Source: a virus. From it: DNA of 64,000 bases. The DNA lies in the IMG/VR virus record IMGVR_UViG_3300032235_000776, positions 1 to 64,000 of that record; one strand, 5' to 3'. Each line of letters begins with the position of its first letter. Position 1 is the stretch's first letter. Shown here piece after piece: positions 3,776-9,990 of this stretch. A model generated the notes under the pieces. The model made no database searches, had not been told where the DNA came from, and saw only the letters and a program-made list of their open reading frames with translations. The position numbers were made by a program, and so were the translations under genes.

Positions 3776-3850
3776 ATGACAATGAATTTCAATATAGCAA
3801 TTAATAAGGTGTGGGGTGATAGACTCATATCTAGGGGCTATATTATGTAA
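3776..3850 (+). CDS. attenuator leader peptide 1 (MTMNFNIAINKVWGDRLISRGYIM)
   Basis: Near-leaderless ORF; codons 6-16 match array-1 tRNAs; overlaps antiterminator 3829-3839. Confidence 0.85.
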   Translation: MTMNFNIAINKVWGDRLISRGYIM

Positions 3851-3868
3851 TTTACAAGATATTACAAG

Positions 3869-3899
3869 AAGCCTCTAGATAAACTCTAGGGGCTTTTTT
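3869..3899 (+). terminator. attenuator terminator 1
   Basis: AAGCCTCTAGA/TCTAGGGGCTT hairpin plus T-tract; 5' arm can instead pair with ATCTAGGGGCT (3829-3839). Confidence 0.9.
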
Positions 3900-3976: not shown

Positions 3977-4030
3977 CAAATACTTTTAAATAATTATTGT
4001 ATTTAAAAGCAAATTTTGTATATTTGTAAT

Positions 4031-4480
4031 ATGAAAAAATGTACAATATGCAAAATTGAAAAGGATGAAGTTAATTTTAATAAGAATAAAACTAGGAAGG
4101 ATGGTATATCAAATGTATGTAAAATTTGCAGCAGAGAAAAATCTTCTACCTACTACAATTCTAATTTAGAAAAACATAGAGAAGAAGTAACTAAAAGAAA
4201 TAACGTACAAAGAGGTTTATTAAAAGATTTTATCAAATCAACGTTAATTACCTCAAAATGTAAAGATTGTGGAAATAAAGATTGGAGAGTTTTAGAATTC
4301 GATCATCTTCCAAATTTTAAAAAAAGAAATGATATTTCATATATGGTTAAAGGAGGGTATAGTTTAGAAAGTATAAAGGATGAAATATCTAAATGTGAAG
4401 TGGTGTGTAGAAATTGTCATTGTATAAGAACAATAGAAAGAAGTGAAAAAGATTATAGAAAAGACTCTTCCGTAGCTTAG
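4031..4480 (+). CDS. HNH-type (homing) endonuclease inserted in tRNA array
   Basis: CxxC pairs, LEFDH, KCEVVCRNCH; own TATATTTG at 4019-4026; stop lies within tRNA-Lys. Confidence 0.8.
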   Translation: MKKCTICKIEKDEVNFNKNKTRKDGISNVCKICSREKSSTYYNSNLEKHREEVTKRNNVQRGLLKDFIKSTLITSKCKDCGNKDWRVLEFDHLPNFKKRNDISYMVKGGYSLESIKDEISKCEVVCRNCHCIRTIERSEKDYRKDSSVA

Positions 4481-4539
4481 TTGGTTAGAGCATTGCACTT
4501 TTAATGCAGAGGTCGGTGGTTCAATTCCACCCGGGAGAA
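4466..4539 (+). tRNA. tRNA-Lys(UUU)
   Basis: TCTTCCG/CGGGAGA; loop CTTTTAA. Confidence 0.95.
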
Positions 4540-4545
4540 CAAAAA

Positions 4546-4617
4546 CCACCTATCGTCCAATGGATAGGACATGGGATTTCTAATCCTTGAATGAGGGTTC
4601 GAGTCCTTCTAGGTGGT
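4546..4617 (+). tRNA. tRNA-Arg(UCU)
   Basis: CCACCTA/TAGGTGG; loop TTTCTAA. Confidence 0.9.
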
Positions 4618-4623
4618 CAATAC

Positions 4624-4692
4624 ACATCCTAGGCTATGGTAGCCAAATGGTCTCCAAAACCATAGGAAATTGTTCGATTCAATTAGGGTGTG
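4624..4692 (+). tRNA. tRNA-Trp(CCA)
   Basis: ACATCCT/AGGGTGT-G; ATGGT-CTCCAAA-ACCAT. Confidence 0.9.
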
Positions 4693-4698
4693 CAAAAT

Positions 4699-4772
4699 TG
4701 TCAATTAGCTCATTTGGTTAGAGCATCACACTGATAATGTGAAGGTGCTAGGTTCGAGTCCTAGATTGACAA
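4699..4772 (+). tRNA. tRNA-Ile(GAU)
   Basis: TGTCAAT/ATTGACA; TCACA-CTGATAA-TGTGA. Confidence 0.95.
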
Positions 4773-4777
4773 CATAT

Positions 4778-4850
4778 TGTGGGGTAGTGCAGCGGCAGCA
4801 TACAGGGCTCATAACCCTAGTGGTCAGGGGTTCGAGTCCCCTCCCCGCAA
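4778..4850 (+). tRNA. tRNA-Met(CAU), initiator-like
   Basis: TGTGGGG/CCCCGCA; three G-C pairs GGG-CTCATAA-CCC in anticodon stem. Confidence 0.85.
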
Positions 4851-4856
4851 CAATAA

Positions 4857-4928
4857 GCAAGTGTAGTATAACGGTTAGTACTCTAGCCTTCCAAGCCTGA
4901 GATGCTGGTTCGATTCCAGTCACTTGCT
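4857..4928 (+). tRNA. tRNA-Gly(UCC)
   Basis: GCAAGTG/CACTTGC-T; loop CTTCCAA. Confidence 0.92.
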
Positions 4929-5045
4929 CAAATGCTCCAGACGTGGAGAACGTAGACAGAAAAGGCCTCTTAATAATGCACACTTTCATCCTAATCGTAG
5001 GTAGGCACAGTTAGTAGATCTGTGGTAATCTTAAAATCTACACTT

Positions 5046-5117
5046 ACTCAAGTAGCTCAGTGGGAGAGCATCTGTTTTACATGCAGAGGGTCGAAGGTTC
5101 AATCCCTTCCTTGAGTA
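5046..5117 (+). tRNA. tRNA-Val(UAC)
   Basis: ACTCAAG/CTTGAGT-A; loop TTTACAT. Confidence 0.93.
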
Positions 5118-5123
5118 CAAAAT

Positions 5124-5197
5124 GGACCTTTAGCTCAATTGGTTAGAGCAACTGACTCATAATCAGAAGGTAGGGAGATCATAACTCTCAAGGTCCA
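5124..5197 (+). tRNA. tRNA(CAU), probably Ile2 (lysidine); elongator Met not excluded
   Basis: GGACCTT/AAGGTCC-A; GA-CTCATAA-TC; Ile2-like body; atypical T loop ATCATAA. Confidence 0.8.
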
Positions 5198-5203
5198 CAA
5201 AAT

Positions 5204-5286
5204 TGTGAGTTCGCATAGAGGCCTAGTGCAGCAGACTGTTAATCTGCCGAAGTAATTCATCATTGGTTCGAATCCAATACTCACAG
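5204..5286 (+). tRNA. tRNA-Asn(GUU) with long variable region
   Basis: TGTGAGT/ACTCACA-G; GCAGA-CTGTTAA-TCTGC. Confidence 0.9.
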
Positions 5287-5291
5287 CAAAT

Positions 5292-5364
5292 GGTCCATAG
5301 GTCAAATGGTTAAGATTTCCCACTGTCTCTGGGTAAGGAACGGGTTCGAATCCCGTATGGACCG
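5292..5364 (+). tRNA. tRNA-Asp(GUC)
   Basis: GGTCCAT/ATGGACC-G; loop CTGTCTC. Confidence 0.9.
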
Positions 5365-5400
5365 CTTTTATTATTCAAATATATGTAGTACCTTTGTAGT

Positions 5401-5676
5401 ATGAAATTAGGATTGGATGATGTATATATAAAGTCAGAAGATTTAGGATTAACAAGTGATATTATTAATCAGTTACATGTACTTGATATAATATCAAATC
5501 CCGAAGGTGAGTTTCTTTATTATCAAGGAGATAATAAATTTTACTATATGTCTTTTAAAAAAAGTGGATACTTAAAAAATCCAGATGGTCCCTGGCATTC
5601 ATTATCCAGTTATAAAAAAATAGATACTAGAACTCCAATAGAAAAAATCAAGCAATGGTTATCTTCTATCTCCTAA
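5401..5676 (+). CDS. hypothetical protein
   Basis: Leaderless ORF after TACCTTTG (5389-5396). Confidence 0.7.
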   Translation: MKLGLDDVYIKSEDLGLTSDIINQLHVLDIISNPEGEFLYYQGDNKFYYMSFKKSGYLKNPDGPWHSLSSYKKIDTRTPIEKIKQWLSSIS

Positions 5677-5734
5677 ACGTAATCTGGATAGTACACCACT
5701 TCCCGAATGATTCAAAAGTAAATTTAATAGAACT

Positions 5735-5914
5735 ATGGAAAAAGTATTTACATATTTAATAAATATTATAAAGAGAAAGAAAATTAAATATAGCACAGGA
5801 CTATGGCATCAATTACACAAAGGAAATGTTATTATATATAATAGTCATCGTAATATTACTAAAAAAGAAGTAGATGAAGTTATTAGTAATTTATTAAATG
5901 GAAAAAATCTTTAG
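5735..5914 (+). CDS. small hypothetical protein (59 aa)
   Basis: MEKVFTYLINIIKRKK...GKNL*; N-terminus similar to next ORF. Confidence 0.5.
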   Translation: MEKVFTYLINIIKRKKIKYSTGLWHQLHKGNVIIYNSHRNITKKEVDEVISNLLNGKNL

Positions 5915-6056
5915 ATATTTAATTAACACAATAAGAAGAGATAGGCCTTCCGGAGTACTTTGGGATTCTTTTTCTAAATCTCAAAAAGAAAATTTTTCAA
6001 AAAAAATCCTGACCCATAAAGAATATATTGATATAAGAGACGGAATATTTGGATAA
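5898..6056 (+). CDS. small hypothetical protein (52 aa)
   Basis: MEKIFRYLINTIRRDR...DGIFG*. Confidence 0.5.
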   Translation: MEKIFRYLINTIRRDRPSGVLWDSFSKSQKENFSKKILTHKEYIDIRDGIFG

Positions 6057-6079
6057 TTAAAAATAAAGTATTATATTTG
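6048..6079 (+). promoter_or_regulatory. promoter of tRNA operon 2
   Basis: TTTG(6048-51)-N20-TATATTTG(6072-79). Confidence 0.85.
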
Positions 6080-6086
6080 TAGTATA

Positions 6087-6140
6087 ATGATGAAGCAATA
6101 TTCATATAGTTCACTCTATTTACCTGATTATTCGGGCTAG
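6087..6140 (+). CDS. attenuator leader peptide 2 (MMKQYSYSSLYLPDYSG)
   Basis: Codons 5-12 are only Tyr/Ser/Leu, matching array 2; TAG stop. Confidence 0.88.
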   Translation: MMKQYSYSSLYLPDYSG

Positions 6141-6165
6141 GAGAGAACTGTATGTAAAAATATAG

Positions 6166-6195
6166 AAACCCTGGCCTAATAAGTCAGGGTTTTTT
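6166..6195 (+). terminator. attenuator terminator 2
   Basis: ACCCTGGC/GTCAGGGT plus T-tract; can instead pair with leader 6123-6141. Confidence 0.9.
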
Positions 6196-6199
6196 ATTT

Positions 6200-6273
6200 A
6201 CCTCTGTGGGCAAACGGTAAAGTCACTGGTCTTAGAAACCAGAGTTTTGGGAGTTCGAATCTCCCCAGGGGTA
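6200..6273 (+). tRNA. tRNA-Leu(UAG), short variable arm
   Basis: ACCTCTG/CAGGGGT-A; CTGGT-CTTAGAA-ACCAG. Confidence 0.9.
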
Positions 6274-6277
6274 CAAT

Positions 6278-6359
6278 GCATCGGTGGTGAAACTGGTAGA
6301 CGCAAGGGACTTAAAATCCCTCGACATATGTCATGTGGGTTCGATTCCCACCCGGTGCA
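6278..6359 (+). tRNA. tRNA-Leu(UAA)
   Basis: GCATCGG/CCGGTGC-A; AGGGA-CTTAAAA-TCCCT; long variable arm. Confidence 0.95.
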
Positions 6360-6364
6360 CAAAT

Positions 6365-6450
6365 AGTAGGTATGCTAGTGGCCTAGCAGTCAGTCTTGAA
6401 AACTGATATACATGGTGAAAATCATGGGGGATCGATACCTCTACCTACTG
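6365..6450 (+). tRNA. tRNA-Ser(UGA)
   Basis: AGTAGGT/ACCTACT-G; TCAGT-CTTGAAA-ACTGA; long variable arm. Confidence 0.88.
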
Positions 6451-6455
6451 CATAT

Positions 6456-6538
6456 AGAAAGTAAACTGAACTGGGTTTAGGCTCCCCTGCTAAGGGATGC
6501 GTAGAGATATCTATTTGGTTCGATTCCAATTCTTTCTG
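6456..6538 (+). tRNA. tRNA-Ser(GCU)
   Basis: AGAAAG/CTTTCT-G; TCCC-CTGCTAA-GGGA; variable arm. Confidence 0.85.
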
Positions 6539-6544
6539 CTATAA

Positions 6545-6625
6545 CCCAACGATGGTAAGGTGGTGAAATCAGAGCACTGTAAATGCTTCGCTTCGGCTAT
6601 TTAGGTTCGATTCCTAACGGTGGGA
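6545..6625 (+). tRNA. tRNA-Tyr(GUA)
   Basis: CCCAACG/CGGTGGG-A; GAGCA-CTGTAAA-TGCTT. Confidence 0.88.
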
Positions 6626-6644
6626 CAAAAAAATTTAAAAAATA

Positions 6645-6675
6645 TTTGACAAATAAATAAAAAGTCATATATTTG
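6645..6675 (+). promoter_or_regulatory. promoter of suppressor-tRNA/Pth unit
   Basis: TTTG(6645-48)-N19-TATATTTG(6668-75). Confidence 0.85.
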
Positions 6676-6686
6676 TAGTGATATAA

Positions 6687-6759
6687 GGACTAATGCTAGT
6701 GGTTAGCAACTTCTCTCTAAAAGAAGCGTCTAAGGGTTCGATTCCCTTTTAGTCCTCCA
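6687..6759 (+). tRNA. amber suppressor tRNA(CUA)
   Basis: GGACTAA/TTAGTCC-T-CCA; CTTCT-CTCTAAA-AGAAG; T arm AAGGG-TTCGATT-CCCTT. Confidence 0.92.
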
Positions 6760-7079
6760 TGGCTTAGATTAAAAAACTCGTAACCGTAACCCGTAGAGAT
6801 TTAACTATCTCTCAACAAGCTGTACAATCTACACATGCAGCTTTAGATTTTGTATTTCAAAATCCCATAACAGCTTTGTTATGGCATCAATCAAATTACC
6901 TTATTCAATTAACCGTAGCTGACGAGGAGGAGTTACTGAATTTAAAAGTCAAACTCTCCGATGTCTCTGTAAAGCATACTGCTTTCAGAGAACCAGATAT
7001 GGACAATCAATTAACTGCTATATGTATAGCACCTGGTAAATTAACAAAGGAAATAACAAAAAAATTTAAATTATTATGA
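6759..7079 (+). CDS. Pth2-like peptidyl-tRNA hydrolase with in-frame TAG at codon 3
   Basis: ATG GCT TAG ATT AAA AAA CTC..., in frame with listed 6876-7079; KLVTVTRRDL..QQAVQSTHAA..FREPD..QLTAICIAP motifs. Confidence 0.82.
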
Positions 7080-7405
7080 TCGCAACTCGCATTATATCCG
7101 CAGAAAATGAAATTTATAATGGTAGACTCATTATAAAATTTGACAGACATAGAATAGTGTTACCTAATAACAACAGTAAAAGAATGTATTTAGGTAAAAG
7201 AAGATACAGAGAATTAATGAATTCAGCAGTAAGTAAAGATATACCTTTAAGATATACTGATGAATATCTATATCATTTACCAAAGAAACTAAAAGAAAGT
7301 ATAGTATTCGATGAACCTGTTAAAGTACAACCTGTTAAAACTCAAGTAGTTACAGAAGAACCTATAAAACAAAAAAGATTTTTTCGATCTTTATTTGGTT
7401 TGTAA
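7076..7405 (+). CDS. hypothetical protein
   Basis: ATGA overlap with Pth2-like gene. Confidence 0.7.
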   Translation: MIATRIISAENEIYNGRLIIKFDRHRIVLPNNNSKRMYLGKRRYRELMNSAVSKDIPLRYTDEYLYHLPKKLKESIVFDEPVKVQPVKTQVVTEEPIKQKRFFRSLFGL

Positions 7406-7425
7406 AAATAAAAGTTGTATATTTG
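7394..7425 (+). promoter_or_regulatory. promoter of tRNA operon 3
   Basis: TTTG(7394-97)-N20-TATATTTG(7418-25). Confidence 0.85.
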
Positions 7426-7429
7426 TAGT

Positions 7430-7504
7430 ATGAAAGTAACATTTACACAGCGTCCAGAGCAACATACCCCATGTTTTACATGGAGTGCTAGGGTCATTGT
7501 GTAA
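7430..7504 (+). CDS. attenuator leader peptide 3 (MKVTFTQRPEQHTPCFTWSARVIV)
   Basis: Codons 4-17 use only, and all of, the 8 amino acids of array 3. Confidence 0.9.
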   Translation: MKVTFTQRPEQHTPCFTWSARVIV

Positions 7505-7532
7505 ATGCATATTCAATATGTCAAAGACTTTG

Positions 7533-7559
7533 AACCCTGGCTAAACACCAGGGTTTTTT
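7533..7559 (+). terminator. attenuator terminator 3
   Basis: AACCCTGG/CCAGGGTT plus T-tract; 5' arm can instead pair with GCTAGGGT (7487-7494). Confidence 0.9.
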
Positions 7560-7566
7560 GTTTTAT

Positions 7567-7639
7567 GCTCGGTTAGTTCACATGGTTAAAACAGTGGGTT
7601 TTCACCCCACAGTAACGAGTTCGATTCTCGTACCGAGTA
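7567..7639 (+). tRNA. tRNA-Glu(UUC)
   Basis: GCTCGGT/ACCGAGT-A; GTGGG-TTTTCAC-CCCAC. Confidence 0.9.
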
Positions 7640-7646
7640 CAAAATT

Positions 7647-7734
7647 CGGGGAGTAGGTCTGTAGTCTGGTAGCAGTCCTGCCTTGGAAGCAGGTGGAGTA
7701 AAATCCCTCGTTGGTTCGAATCCAACCTTCCCGA
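7647..7734 (+). tRNA. tRNA-Pro(UGG) with long variable arm
   Basis: CGGGGAG/CTTCCCG-A; CCTGC-CTTGGAA-GCAGG. Confidence 0.88.
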
Positions 7735-7740
7735 CAATAA

Positions 7741-7812
7741 GTTAGGTTGACTGAATGGTAAGGTCACGGTCTGCAAAACCGCTGTTCGTAGGTTCGATTC
7801 CTACACCTAACT
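7741..7812 (+). tRNA. tRNA-Cys(GCA)
   Basis: GTTAGGT/ACCTAAC-T (U73); loop CTGCAAA. Confidence 0.92.
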
Positions 7813-7816
7813 CTAT

Positions 7817-7891
7817 GGTACATGAGCTAGTCTGGTGATTCAGCGCATGCCTGAAGAGCATGAGAATAAGGTTCGATTCCTTGATGTACCA
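7817..7891 (+). tRNA. tRNA-Phe(GAA)
   Basis: GGTACAT/ATGTACC-A; CATGC-CTGAAGA-GCATG. Confidence 0.9.
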
Positions 7892-7898
7892 CAAATAA

Positions 7899-7972
7899 GC
7901 CTCCAAAGCATAATTGGCTTGATGCACCCGGTTTGTACCCGGGATAACTGGGTTCGACTCCTAGTGGAGGCT
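7899..7972 (+). tRNA. tRNA-Thr(UGU)
   Basis: GCCTCCA/TGGAGGC; CCCGG-TTTGTAC-CCGGG. Confidence 0.92.
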
Positions 7973-7973
7973 C

Positions 7974-8045
7974 TAAGATATAGTTCAGTGAATAGAACAT
8001 CTCCCTACGAAGGAGAAGACATAGGTTTGAATCCTATTATCTTAT
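7974..8045 (+). tRNA. tRNA-Arg(ACG)
   Basis: TAAGATA/TATCTTA; TCTCC-CTACGAA-GGAGA; encoded CCA 8046-48. Confidence 0.9.
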
Positions 8046-8047
8046 CC

Positions 8048-8120
8048 ACTCCGGTCTTCTAATCGGCAGGAAATCTAACTTTGAATTAGATAATAGTAGG
8101 TTCGAATCCTCTCTGGAGTA
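8048..8120 (+). tRNA. tRNA-Gln(UUG)
   Basis: ACTCCGG/CTGGAGT-A; TCTAA-CTTTGAA-TTAGA. Confidence 0.88.
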
Positions 8121-8126
8121 CAATAT

Positions 8127-8198
8127 GGTGTTTGAAGCATTAAGGTGATGCGCTTTCTTGTGACGAAAGAGAATACGGCTCAATACCGTACTAACACC
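8127..8198 (+). tRNA. tRNA-His(GUG)
   Basis: G-1:C73; CTTTC-TTGTGAC-GAAAG. Confidence 0.88.
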
Positions 8199-8262
8199 CT
8201 AATCCATATTCCAATCTATCATAAGTAGGATTATTCCTACTATAATACCAACAATAAATCCT

Positions 8263-9990
8263 TTAATTATTAAGGCTTCCATTAATTAAATTATTAAGTA
8301 ATTCTCTATCTTCTGCTGCTTTATACCAACCTTTTTCATAGAGAGCATCCATTTGACCACCTCTTGAAAAGTGATTGTGAATTGTTTTAGTATTCTCTAC
8401 AATTGCAGCTAAACCCTTGCTTCTCATTTGATGCCATAACCAATTGTCACAACCTACGTGATGGAAGCGAGTATCAAAGATTTCTCCATTTGATAAATAA
8501 TCAATTGCACTTCTTTTGATCATGAAGTGTTCGCACTCTTGTACACCGGTGTTAAAGATAAGTAACTCATAACCAACCTTTTGTGATTTAATTACTGCTT
8601 TGATAAAGTCATCTGCATGGAATACTACATCACTTGCAGCAAAGCAAATAAAGTATCCATTACTTTCTTGTACTCCAATTTTTACTTTTTCCGGCACAGT
8701 TTCATCTCCTTCAATAGTATGAATAGAAATTAACTCCTGAGGATAGTTTTGTTTTGCAATGGAAGCCAGGCATTTATCCAATCCTTCATCTCTATAACCC
8801 ACTACATGAGGGATAATAACAGAGATAGTTGGTAATCCATTGTAAAATCTAAAGTCTCTTAGATAATCCGAGTTATTTGGTTGGTATTCTAAGCACTTAT
8901 TAAGGTGCTCCTTAGCTTCATTAATCATTCCCATAAAGCCATATGCAACATATAGTATTCTATGAGGCTCGTCAGTGTAATGACTCATGTTATTTGCATA
9001 ATAATTATTATATGGAATCTCTAAAGCAGCTTTAGCATATGCTACAGCCTGTAAAAGTCTATTATTAAGTAAGTAAAAATTAGCAAATTCAATGTAAGGT
9101 TCTCTTCTTGAGCCATCAGTGTAGATAGATTGGTTATAGTAATCAACCTGTTTATCCGGCATATTGAGAAATCCATAGCATCTACCTATAAAAATCATGC
9201 TTTGAGCATTTTCCATAGGCATTTTACCCATCGTAAGATGTCTTTTTAACTCTCTAATAGCACTTCTATATCTACCGGTAAACATTAATTCTCTACCAAA
9301 GTAGTGAGAGTTACGATCATTCTCAGGATTAAGGTAAGTATCAATTGCAAGACCTCTTAAGTAATGAGATCTGTTAGTTTCTGGGTTTTGAAAGTGCTCT
9401 AACTTGATTACATCCTCTCCAACATACTGTCTTTTTGCATCTCCCTGTAAAACTTCATGAATTACACCTACCCATTTTAAGCATCTTCTATCATATGCCT
9501 TAGAATGCAGGAATTGAATTGCTGGAGATCCATCAGGAAGGTGACTAAATACAAAATTATACTCCAATTGTTGGATATTATCATCAATTAATTTAGAAAT
9601 TAGATCAATATTAAAGGAAGTAAAGATTTCATCACAATCAGGAGTAAAAATAAAGTCTGTATTGGAGAATGTTGCAATGTAATTCCTTGCAGATGAGTAG
9701 TCAAACTGTCTATCTCCTTCTTTAATTACGTTTGCATCTCCATCTACTACATATTTTTCATTAATTTTGGAAGAAAGCTCTTCATCAACCTTAATAAGGA
9801 ACTTATCTCCTACTGTAATGACATTTGCTCCCCAATTTTTAGCTACTTCCACTGTATTATCAGTAGATCCAGTGTCAAGAATATGTACTTCTCCTCCTCT
9901 GGCTTTAAATTCATCCAGGGATTTTAATAATCTTGGTAGAGTCTTAGACTCATTCCTTGCAATTAGGCAAAATGAAAAATTCATGCACAA
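8263..9990 (-). CDS. GT2 glycosyltransferase-TPR-GT2 fusion
   Basis: LIARNE, DTGSTDNT, SARN, DCDE, IHE motifs; TPR-like middle; second ISVIIP GT2 domain. Confidence 0.9.
   Translation of the reverse strand: MCMNFSFCLIARNESKTLPRLLKSLDEFKARGGEVHILDTGSTDNTVEVAKNWGANVITVGDKFLIKVDEELSSKINEKYVVDGDANVIKEGDRQFDYSSARNYIATFSNTDFIFTPDCDEIFTSFNIDLISKLIDDNIQQLEYNFVFSHLPDGSPAIQFLHSKAYDRRCLKWVGVIHEVLQGDAKRQYVGEDVIKLEHFQNPETNRSHYLRGLAIDTYLNPENDRNSHYFGRELMFTGRYRSAIRELKRHLTMGKMPMENAQSMIFIGRCYGFLNMPDKQVDYYNQSIYTDGSRREPYIEFANFYLLNNRLLQAVAYAKAALEIPYNNYYANNMSHYTDEPHRILYVAYGFMGMINEAKEHLNKCLEYQPNNSDYLRDFRFYNGLPTISVIIPHVVGYRDEGLDKCLASIAKQNYPQELISIHTIEGDETVPEKVKIGVQESNGYFICFAASDVVFHADDFIKAVIKSQKVGYELLIFNTGVQECEHFMIKRSAIDYLSNGEIFDTRFHHVGCDNWLWHQMRSKGLAAIVENTKTIHNHFSRGGQMDALYEKGWYKAAEDRELLNNLINGSLNN

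Follow-up and report, generated by a model that had tools for sequence, protein, structure and literature searches.

Introduction

In the amino-acid operons of enterobacteria, the classical his, leu and thr leaders report amino-acid starvation, and multivalent leaders combine the codons of several amino acids, as in ilvGMEDA (Ile/Leu/Val codons) and the thr leader (Thr/Ile codons). Phage tRNA genes are usually seen either as a constitutive means of compensating for codon usage or as substitutes for tRNAs that host defences cleave.

The DNA analysed here (64,000 nt, hereafter the window) comprises positions 1-64,000 of IMG/VR record IMGVR_UViG_3300032235_000776, a virus sequence of 92 kb that is approximately 75% complete. 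We propose, with a probability of about 75%, that a ribosome-mediated (leader-peptide) transcription attenuator gates a Leu/Ser/Tyr tRNA operon of this phage. The locus resembles the trpL, hisL, leuL, pheL, ilvGMEDA and thr leaders in possessing a short leader ORF with a block of putative regulatory codons, followed, as in the amino-acid operons, by a predicted 1:2 hairpin, 2:3 antiterminator and 3:4 intrinsic terminator between which the position of the ribosome would decide; as in the ilvGMEDA and thr leaders, several amino acids would be tested by one leader. Unlike the leaders of amino-acid operons, the phage leader would regulate tRNAs rather than biosynthetic enzymes, and its codon block samples each box once or a few times whereas theirs repeat one amino acid. 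It differs from the enterobacterial leaders also in being phage-encoded, on a near-leaderless mRNA, behind a Bacteroidota promoter and without a Shine-Dalgarno sequence.

Among systems that act on the translation apparatus, the pheST attenuator (pheM leader) and the T-boxes likewise couple the state of a cognate tRNA to a choice between terminator and antiterminator; however, the pheST attenuator and the synthetase T-boxes control synthetases, and T-boxes bind tRNA directly without a ribosome. The closest published parallel is the trn L-array of Anabaena PCC 7120, described as a stress-induced tRNA operon (PMC8421152, PMC10272220). Like the phage array as we interpret it, this set of accessory tRNAs is off by default, and impaired translation turns it on. 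Unlike the phage array, it is cellular, and it is controlled by the transcriptional repressor TrcR according to PMC10272220; the terms ‘attenuat-’, ‘leader’ and ‘terminator’ are all absent from PMC8421152. No published leader-peptide attenuator of tRNA genes was found in the literature searched. The proposed mechanism is a known one, leader-peptide attenuation, and its target, the tRNA genes, would be new.

Results and discussion

Phage, host and promoters

The window is AT-rich, and PHROG families are matched by its large terminase, portal and major head proteins. The best portal matches in a database search (≤30% identity) were with crAss-like phages and with Cellulophaga, Flavobacterium and Bacteroides phages, and the phage is crAss-like. 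Genes of the tRNA region are preceded by a TTTG ... TAnnTTTG arrangement, in which TAnnTTTG is the Bacteroides -7 promoter consensus (PMC4747536). On the basis of the portal relatives and these promoters, the host is probably a member of the Bacteroidota. The same arrangement was found before all three leaders of the window (Table 1), before an amber-suppressor tRNA and before real genes at 4032 and 5401. A nucleotide search of GenBank phages returned matches at the tRNA level only, and the sole match in a scan with the large terminase alone was a near-identical 4-kb fragment.

Table 1. Features of the tRNA region (positions in the window) and leaders of related contigs.
Feature	Positions	Strand	Description	Basis
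Leader 1 with terminator	3776-3898		MTMNF-NIAINKVWGDR-...; terminator 3866-3898; before Ala, (HNH gene), Lys Arg Trp Ile Met Gly Val CAU Asn Asp	
Bacteroidota-type promoter of leader 2	6048-6079	+	-33 TTTG 6048-6051; -7 TATATTTG 6072-6079	read in sequence
Leader 2 ORF	6087-6140	+	17 codons and TAG stop (6138-6140); peptide MMKQ-YSYSSLYL-PDYSG	read in sequence
Putative regulatory codon block	6099-6122	+	YSYSSLYL, codons 5-12, 8 consecutive	six-frame scan
Leader hairpin (regions 1:2)	6103-6154	+	5' strand is the codon block	RNA fold
Predicted antiterminator, 5' strand	6123-6141	+	pairs with 6169-6189; core GGGCUAGG (6134-6141) overlaps the TAG stop	minimum-energy fold
Intrinsic terminator	6164-6199	+	G+C core stem 6169-6175/6183-6189, loop 6176-6182, U-run (U6) 6190-6195	fold
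tRNA-Leu(UAG)	6200-6274	+	75 nt, no long variable arm	ARAGORN; Rfam tRNA 58.5 bits
tRNA-Leu(UAA)	6278-6360	+		ARAGORN; Rfam 53.1 bits
tRNA-Ser(UGA)	6365-6451	+		ARAGORN; Rfam tRNA-clan match 42 bits
tRNA-Ser(GCU)	6460-6539	+	atypical stems	ARAGORN, relaxed threshold only; Rfam tRNA-clan 29.3 bits, E = 0.0076, 6457-6536
tRNA-Tyr(GUA)	6545-6626	+		ARAGORN; Rfam 26 bits
Leader 3 with terminator	7430-7556		MKV-TFTQRPEQHTPCFT-...; terminator 7532-7556; before Glu Pro Cys Phe Thr Arg Gln His	
Leader of contig G002 (108 kb, IMG/VR)			MRFTAT-LYSSLYL-PTRDRLR; tRNAs Leu, Leu, Ser, Ser, (HNH), Tyr	
Leader of metagenome contig L043			MKRI-LSYSSYLSLSL-QDRLGLLWT; HNH-interrupted stretch, then Leu, Leu, Ser, Ser, Tyr	
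Leader of metagenome contig L069			MKIQ-SLYSYLSLSL-QKERDFYMK; Leu, Leu, Leu, Ser, then contig end	

The leader ORF and its codon block

The second leader is nearly leaderless, its ATG lying 7 nt past the -7 box and approximately 3 nt past the expected transcript start. This promoter-to-ATG geometry (TAnnTTTG-N4-ATG) is common to two protein genes of the phage (a 149-aa HNH gene and a 91-aa ORF), and because real phage genes share it, the leader ORF is in a translatable context and its translation is predicted. The codons are ATG ATG AAG CAA / TAT TCA TAT AGT TCA CTC TAT TTA / CCT GAT TAT TCG GGC TAG. An earlier note on this DNA had proposed that codons 5-12 cover both Ser boxes, both Leu boxes and Tyr, and this was confirmed in the sequence: all eight codons are cognate to the array, and all five of its boxes (Tyr, Ser-UCN, Ser-AGY, Leu-CUN, Leu-UUR) are represented.

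The significance of such blocks was assessed by a six-frame scan of the 92-kb genome for pure runs of the codons of one array, scored by the number of boxes covered. Leu, Ser and Tyr together account for 19.9% of codons in the long genes of the phage, and four runs genome-wide cover 5/5 boxes of array 2; the leader run is the joint longest of the four and shares the strand of the cognate array, which begins approximately 100 nt further downstream. The expected number of full-coverage Leu/Ser/Tyr runs is ~0.003 per 150-nt one-strand window (150/183,916 positions). For array 3, a single run (14 codons, 8/8 boxes) was found genome-wide and is leader 3, the next best run covering 6 boxes, while 10/11 boxes of array 1 are reached by two runs, one of which is leader 1. 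In every case the top codon run precedes its own array by approximately 100 nt, with the same orientation and between promoter and terminator, for which the joint chance expectation across the three leaders of the window is ~4 x 10^-9.

By standard wobble, the anticodon UAG does not read CTC. This codon is the rarest Leu codon of the phage (2% of Leu codons), yet it is present in all four Leu/Ser/Tyr leaders, and is either kept by the hairpin, in which CUC pairs with GAG, or a deliberately slow codon.

Two other interpretations of the leader were tried and rejected. An origin as a tRNA-derived fragment was discarded, the longest word shared with the array being 9 nt and within the range of shuffles. 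Genome-wide recoding of TAG, as a background to the TAG stop of leader 2, was unsupported: coding is dense under the standard code and the longest frames of the genome are not lengthened by TAG read-through. The TAG stop is not conserved, the three related leaders ending in TAA, and with no sign of TAG recoding a connection with the suppressor tRNA need not be assumed.

The Leu/Ser/Tyr tRNA array

The five tRNAs expected from the codon block were all located behind the terminator, four by ARAGORN at default settings. Ser(GCU) was missed at these settings and recovered by a relaxed threshold together with a weak Rfam match; ARAGORN called it at the corresponding place in the arrays of G002 and L043. 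Inspection of the sequence between the terminator and the tRNA at 6200 showed that no promoter fits there, and since there is no room for one before the first tRNA, array 2 is transcribable only through the terminator.

The earlier note had remarked that the array groups the three amino acids whose bacterial tRNAs normally have long variable arms. The grouping is real in the clade of the window but does not extend to the cultured Cellulophaga phage phi17:2, in which the Leu, Tyr and Ser tRNAs are in three blocks. Long variable arms are present in four of the five tRNAs, the exception being the 75-nt Leu(UAG). A long variable arm is an expected feature of bacterial tRNA-Leu. A tRNA-Leu(UAG) without it was also observed in G002 (L007 5674-5748, 75 nt), and the L043 copy and that of a jumbo phage contig, G003, have the long arm.

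Alternative folds of the leader RNA

The leader RNA (6087-6199) folds at -38.3 kcal/mol (z = -5.5 against 200 shuffles) into the leader hairpin and the terminator, which ends 4 nt short of tRNA-Leu(UAG). In this fold, when the ribosome is absent, the antiterminator segment is sequestered by the leader hairpin. Removal of the 5' end to 6117-6126 gave a minimum-energy fold in which 18 of the 19 nt of the antiterminator strand pair with both terminator arms, which bears out the earlier description of this segment as near-antisense to the whole terminator hairpin; when the 5' end was removed beyond 6129, the terminator returned. The duplex between the antiterminator and the terminator 5' arm was calculated at -12.6 kcal/mol, a value equalled by 1 of 500 shuffles.

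In a ribosome-masking model (30-nt mask, with the ensemble probability of the 5' arm sitting in the terminator as the readout), P(terminator) for leader 2 was 0.87 both in the free RNA and with the ribosome at the stop codon. It fell to 0.00 when the A site was placed on codons 6-8, was 0.29 for codon 9 and amounted to at least 0.8 for codons 10-12. Antiterminator formation in silico therefore depends on the position of the ribosome and is exclusive of the terminator, and stalls at codons 10-12 did not favour the antiterminator in this equilibrium model. The overlap of the antiterminator core with the TAG stop means that a terminating ribosome would cover it. The modelled folds of leader 2 thus contain the three states of a trp-type attenuator.

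Folds of the nascent RNA, without the 3' arm, showed for the window, G002 and L043 that the 5' arm pairs upstream only with the codon block occluded. At equilibrium the terminator is always more stable in G002 and L069, and therefore a switch there would be kinetic; in the E. coli trp attenuator the terminator is likewise the more stable fold and the switch is kinetic. Duplexes between leader and terminator 5' arm beat dinucleotide shuffles in all nine leaders tested (0-16 of 500 shuffles equally good). For the Leu/Ser/Tyr leaders of the window, G002, L043 and L069, the number of shuffles as good per 500 was 1, 15, 3 and 2, respectively, and complementarity above that of shuffles was also found in five of five further leaders. 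When the four Leu/Ser/Tyr leaders were aligned with MAFFT and folded jointly with RNAalifold, the terminator and the hairpin were both missed; since this alignment is not structural, single-sequence folds and shuffle controls were used.

When the curated Rfam leader families were searched, the only match was with Thr_leader (6098-6195, 22.1 bits against a cut-off of 55, E = 0.72), which is an architectural resemblance and not membership. The leader codons are complementary to the anticodons of the array, as would also be the case if the leader RNA presented its codons to tRNA anticodons without translation, in the manner of a T-box. Such direct sensing is very improbable, given that the T-box riboswitch (RF00230) was absent among the Rfam matches with E ≤ 1 over positions 4000-8600, that the AUG is positioned as in real genes and the codons follow it as one in-frame block, that this block makes up the 5' side of a hairpin and not a specifier loop, and that 8-17 different specifiers per RNA would be without precedent.

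Related Leu/Ser/Tyr leaders

Relatives were retrieved with a Pth2-like gene, located between the arrays, as bait. The cores of the G002, L043 and L069 leaders (Table 1) have a permuted order of residues, and each covers 5/5 boxes. Each Leu/Ser/Tyr leader contains, near its stop codon, a 7-9 nt segment complementary to its own terminator 5' arm, and the pairing covaries, being kept despite differing sequence: GGCUAGG:CCUGGCC in the window, GGCUGAG:CUCGGUC in G002, AGGCUGGGG:CCCUCGGCCU in L043 and GAGAGGG:CCCUCUC in L069. Judged from these comparisons, the predicted attenuator architecture is conserved in the relatives, with changes that would preserve its logic. Most of the 80 other metagenome phage loci obtained with the Pth2-like bait showed no such leader; many are on short contigs and ARAGORN misses atypical tRNAs, and the small number of leaders among the 80 is not evidence of absence. 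Scans of viral contigs with the leader motif, with a tRNA-Leu motif and with ATG plus the leader motif returned only G002 or matches without tRNAs.

Leaders of other tRNA blocks

The layout of leader 2 recurs in leaders 1 and 3 of the window, whose terminators were also found by a consensus scan. In G002, leader 3 (TQHTQRFTPFFCEEP) precedes Glu Pro Cys Phe Thr Arg Gln His and leader 1 (VAGIKNIWNGRDA) precedes its array 1; both contain the residue set of the corresponding window leader in permuted order. The G002 leader 1 lists more amino acids than the tRNAs detected behind it (Ala, Asp, Lys and Asn only); this contig is 88% complete and its array 1 is disrupted by homing-endonuclease insertions.

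The jumbo phage contig G003 (366 kb) has a promoter, the leader MKTLVNIAL-QHPQHQPQ-... and a terminator, followed by Pro His Pro ? Gln Gln (L010 minus strand, G003:C1, near 89-90 kb of the contig). G003 also has a short ORF, MKKMKRKQ, before three Lys tRNAs, without a clear U-tailed terminator.

In phi17:2, MKI-QRLHLQELEQP-... and a terminator precede Pro Glu Gln His Leu Leu Arg, and in a second block 17 cognate codons (TKTGITVIDKTKGARAY) precede Ala Lys Ile Gly Met Asp Thr Val Arg Met Tyr; the two leader-terminator cassettes are at ~519-645 and 1450-1620 of L132 (NC_021798.1 87000-91400). The blocks that contain the Leu, Tyr and Thr tRNAs differ between phi17:2 and the window, and the leaders differ accordingly. 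As read from these sequences, leader composition follows the composition of the tRNA block across phages. Regarding the annotation of phi17:2, the CDS gp077 covers the second leader ORF, and its start is probably wrong; the CDS gp078 overlaps a class-II-tRNA-like sequence.

The amber-suppressor tRNA(CUA) at 6687 of the window has a promoter and neither leader nor terminator, and serves as an internal control because no sense codon could test it.

Intrinsic terminators beside tRNA genes are common, and the arrangement could in principle be unregulated: a constitutive, partly leaky terminator insulating the array or ending upstream transcripts, with an ORF that is incidental or encodes a small functional peptide. 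One argument against this is the leader-2 promoter, which is placed after the upstream gene (stop at 6056) and ahead of the terminator. Another is the presence of full-coverage cognate blocks, which are not due to chance, before three of three arrays in the window, three of three in G002 (array 1 partly detected), and in L043, L069, G003 and phi17:2. A conserved peptide would not explain a residue order that is permuted while the set is kept, nor would an unregulated terminator explain antiterminator complementarity above shuffled controls in 9/9 leaders. We therefore judge the absence of regulation to be improbable, and prefer attenuation by a translated leader.

Proposed mechanism

In the proposed attenuator, host RNA polymerase would start at the Bacteroidota-type promoter, and a ribosome would load on the nearly leaderless AUG and read the eight Tyr/Ser/Leu codons. 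With fast decoding, the ribosome would reach the TAG stop and cover the core at 6134-6141, so that the terminator would form and transcription would stop 4 nt before tRNA-Leu; with no ribosome, the leader hairpin would hide the antiterminator segment, again leading to termination. If usable Leu, Ser or Tyr tRNA were short, a ribosome predicted to stall in the block would open the hairpin and free 6123-6141, which would pair with the terminator 5' arm while the 3' arm has yet to be transcribed, and the polymerase would read into the five tRNA genes. Probably, then, the phage makes the array-2 tRNAs only when Leu, Ser and Tyr codons are read slowly. The modelled read-through would amount to negative feedback with demand-driven induction of exactly the tRNAs that the leader tests.

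The same attenuator hardware might instead report amino-acid starvation, that is, the uncharged fraction of a tRNA rather than its abundance or integrity, as part of a general translation-stress response. Uncharged and missing tRNA would both stall the ribosome, so that the mechanism itself cannot discriminate between them, and the expected anatomy is identical. More tRNA gives no relief from amino-acid starvation, however, which would leave such a response with little selective logic, and the one-to-one match of leader boxes with array tRNAs in several lineages points to the tRNAs as the regulated quantity. Starvation sensing is in our estimation unlikely.

If tRNA supply is what the proposed attenuator senses, a broader role may be suggested tentatively, in which these leaders are sensors of the tRNA pool through which Bacteroidota phages switch on replacement tRNAs block by block upon depletion of specific host tRNAs, caused either by tRNA-cleaving defence nucleases or by a mismatch between phage codon demand and host supply. 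The arrays would then be at once an inducible counter-defence and a self-limiting supply circuit, and possibly the first attenuation system that senses and regulates tRNA itself. Were the attenuator to work as proposed, the phage would gauge decoding capacity box by box and top up only the shortages, and a textbook mechanism would be extended to a new class of target genes. The correspondence of leader and block composition would also provide a predictive rule for annotating atypical phage tRNAs and the boundaries of tRNA operons. The idea is directly testable, because the cultured phage phi17:2 has the same design.

Other features of the tRNA region

Further observations were made in and around the arrays. 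Just upstream of the leader-2 promoter (5735-6056) are two overlapping paralogous small ORFs (59 and 52 aa) that start with MEK.F.YLIN. The 116-nt gap at 4930-5045 in array 1 gave no tRNA call, and its sole Rfam match was the sRNA SpF41 at chance level (26 bits, E = 0.45). The gap may contain a degenerate tRNA or some other small RNA. Homing-endonuclease ORFs (HNH or LAGLIDADG) with their own promoters are located inside the tRNA arrays (window 4032-4480, L007 4884-5315, L043 ~290-915). An Rfam search of the interrupted L043 region returned no group I intron, and a tRNA-like 5' half is present there between the terminator and the HNH ORF; in G002, an apparent orphan tRNA 3' half was observed right after the LAGLIDADG ORF. 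The Pth2-like gene (6645-7079 region of the window) follows immediately behind the amber-suppressor tRNA(CUA) and has an in-frame TAG at codon 3. Among the 80 metagenomic phage loci retrieved with the Pth2-like protein (L013-L092), over half gave an ARAGORN call for a tRNA(CUA), often just upstream of the gene.
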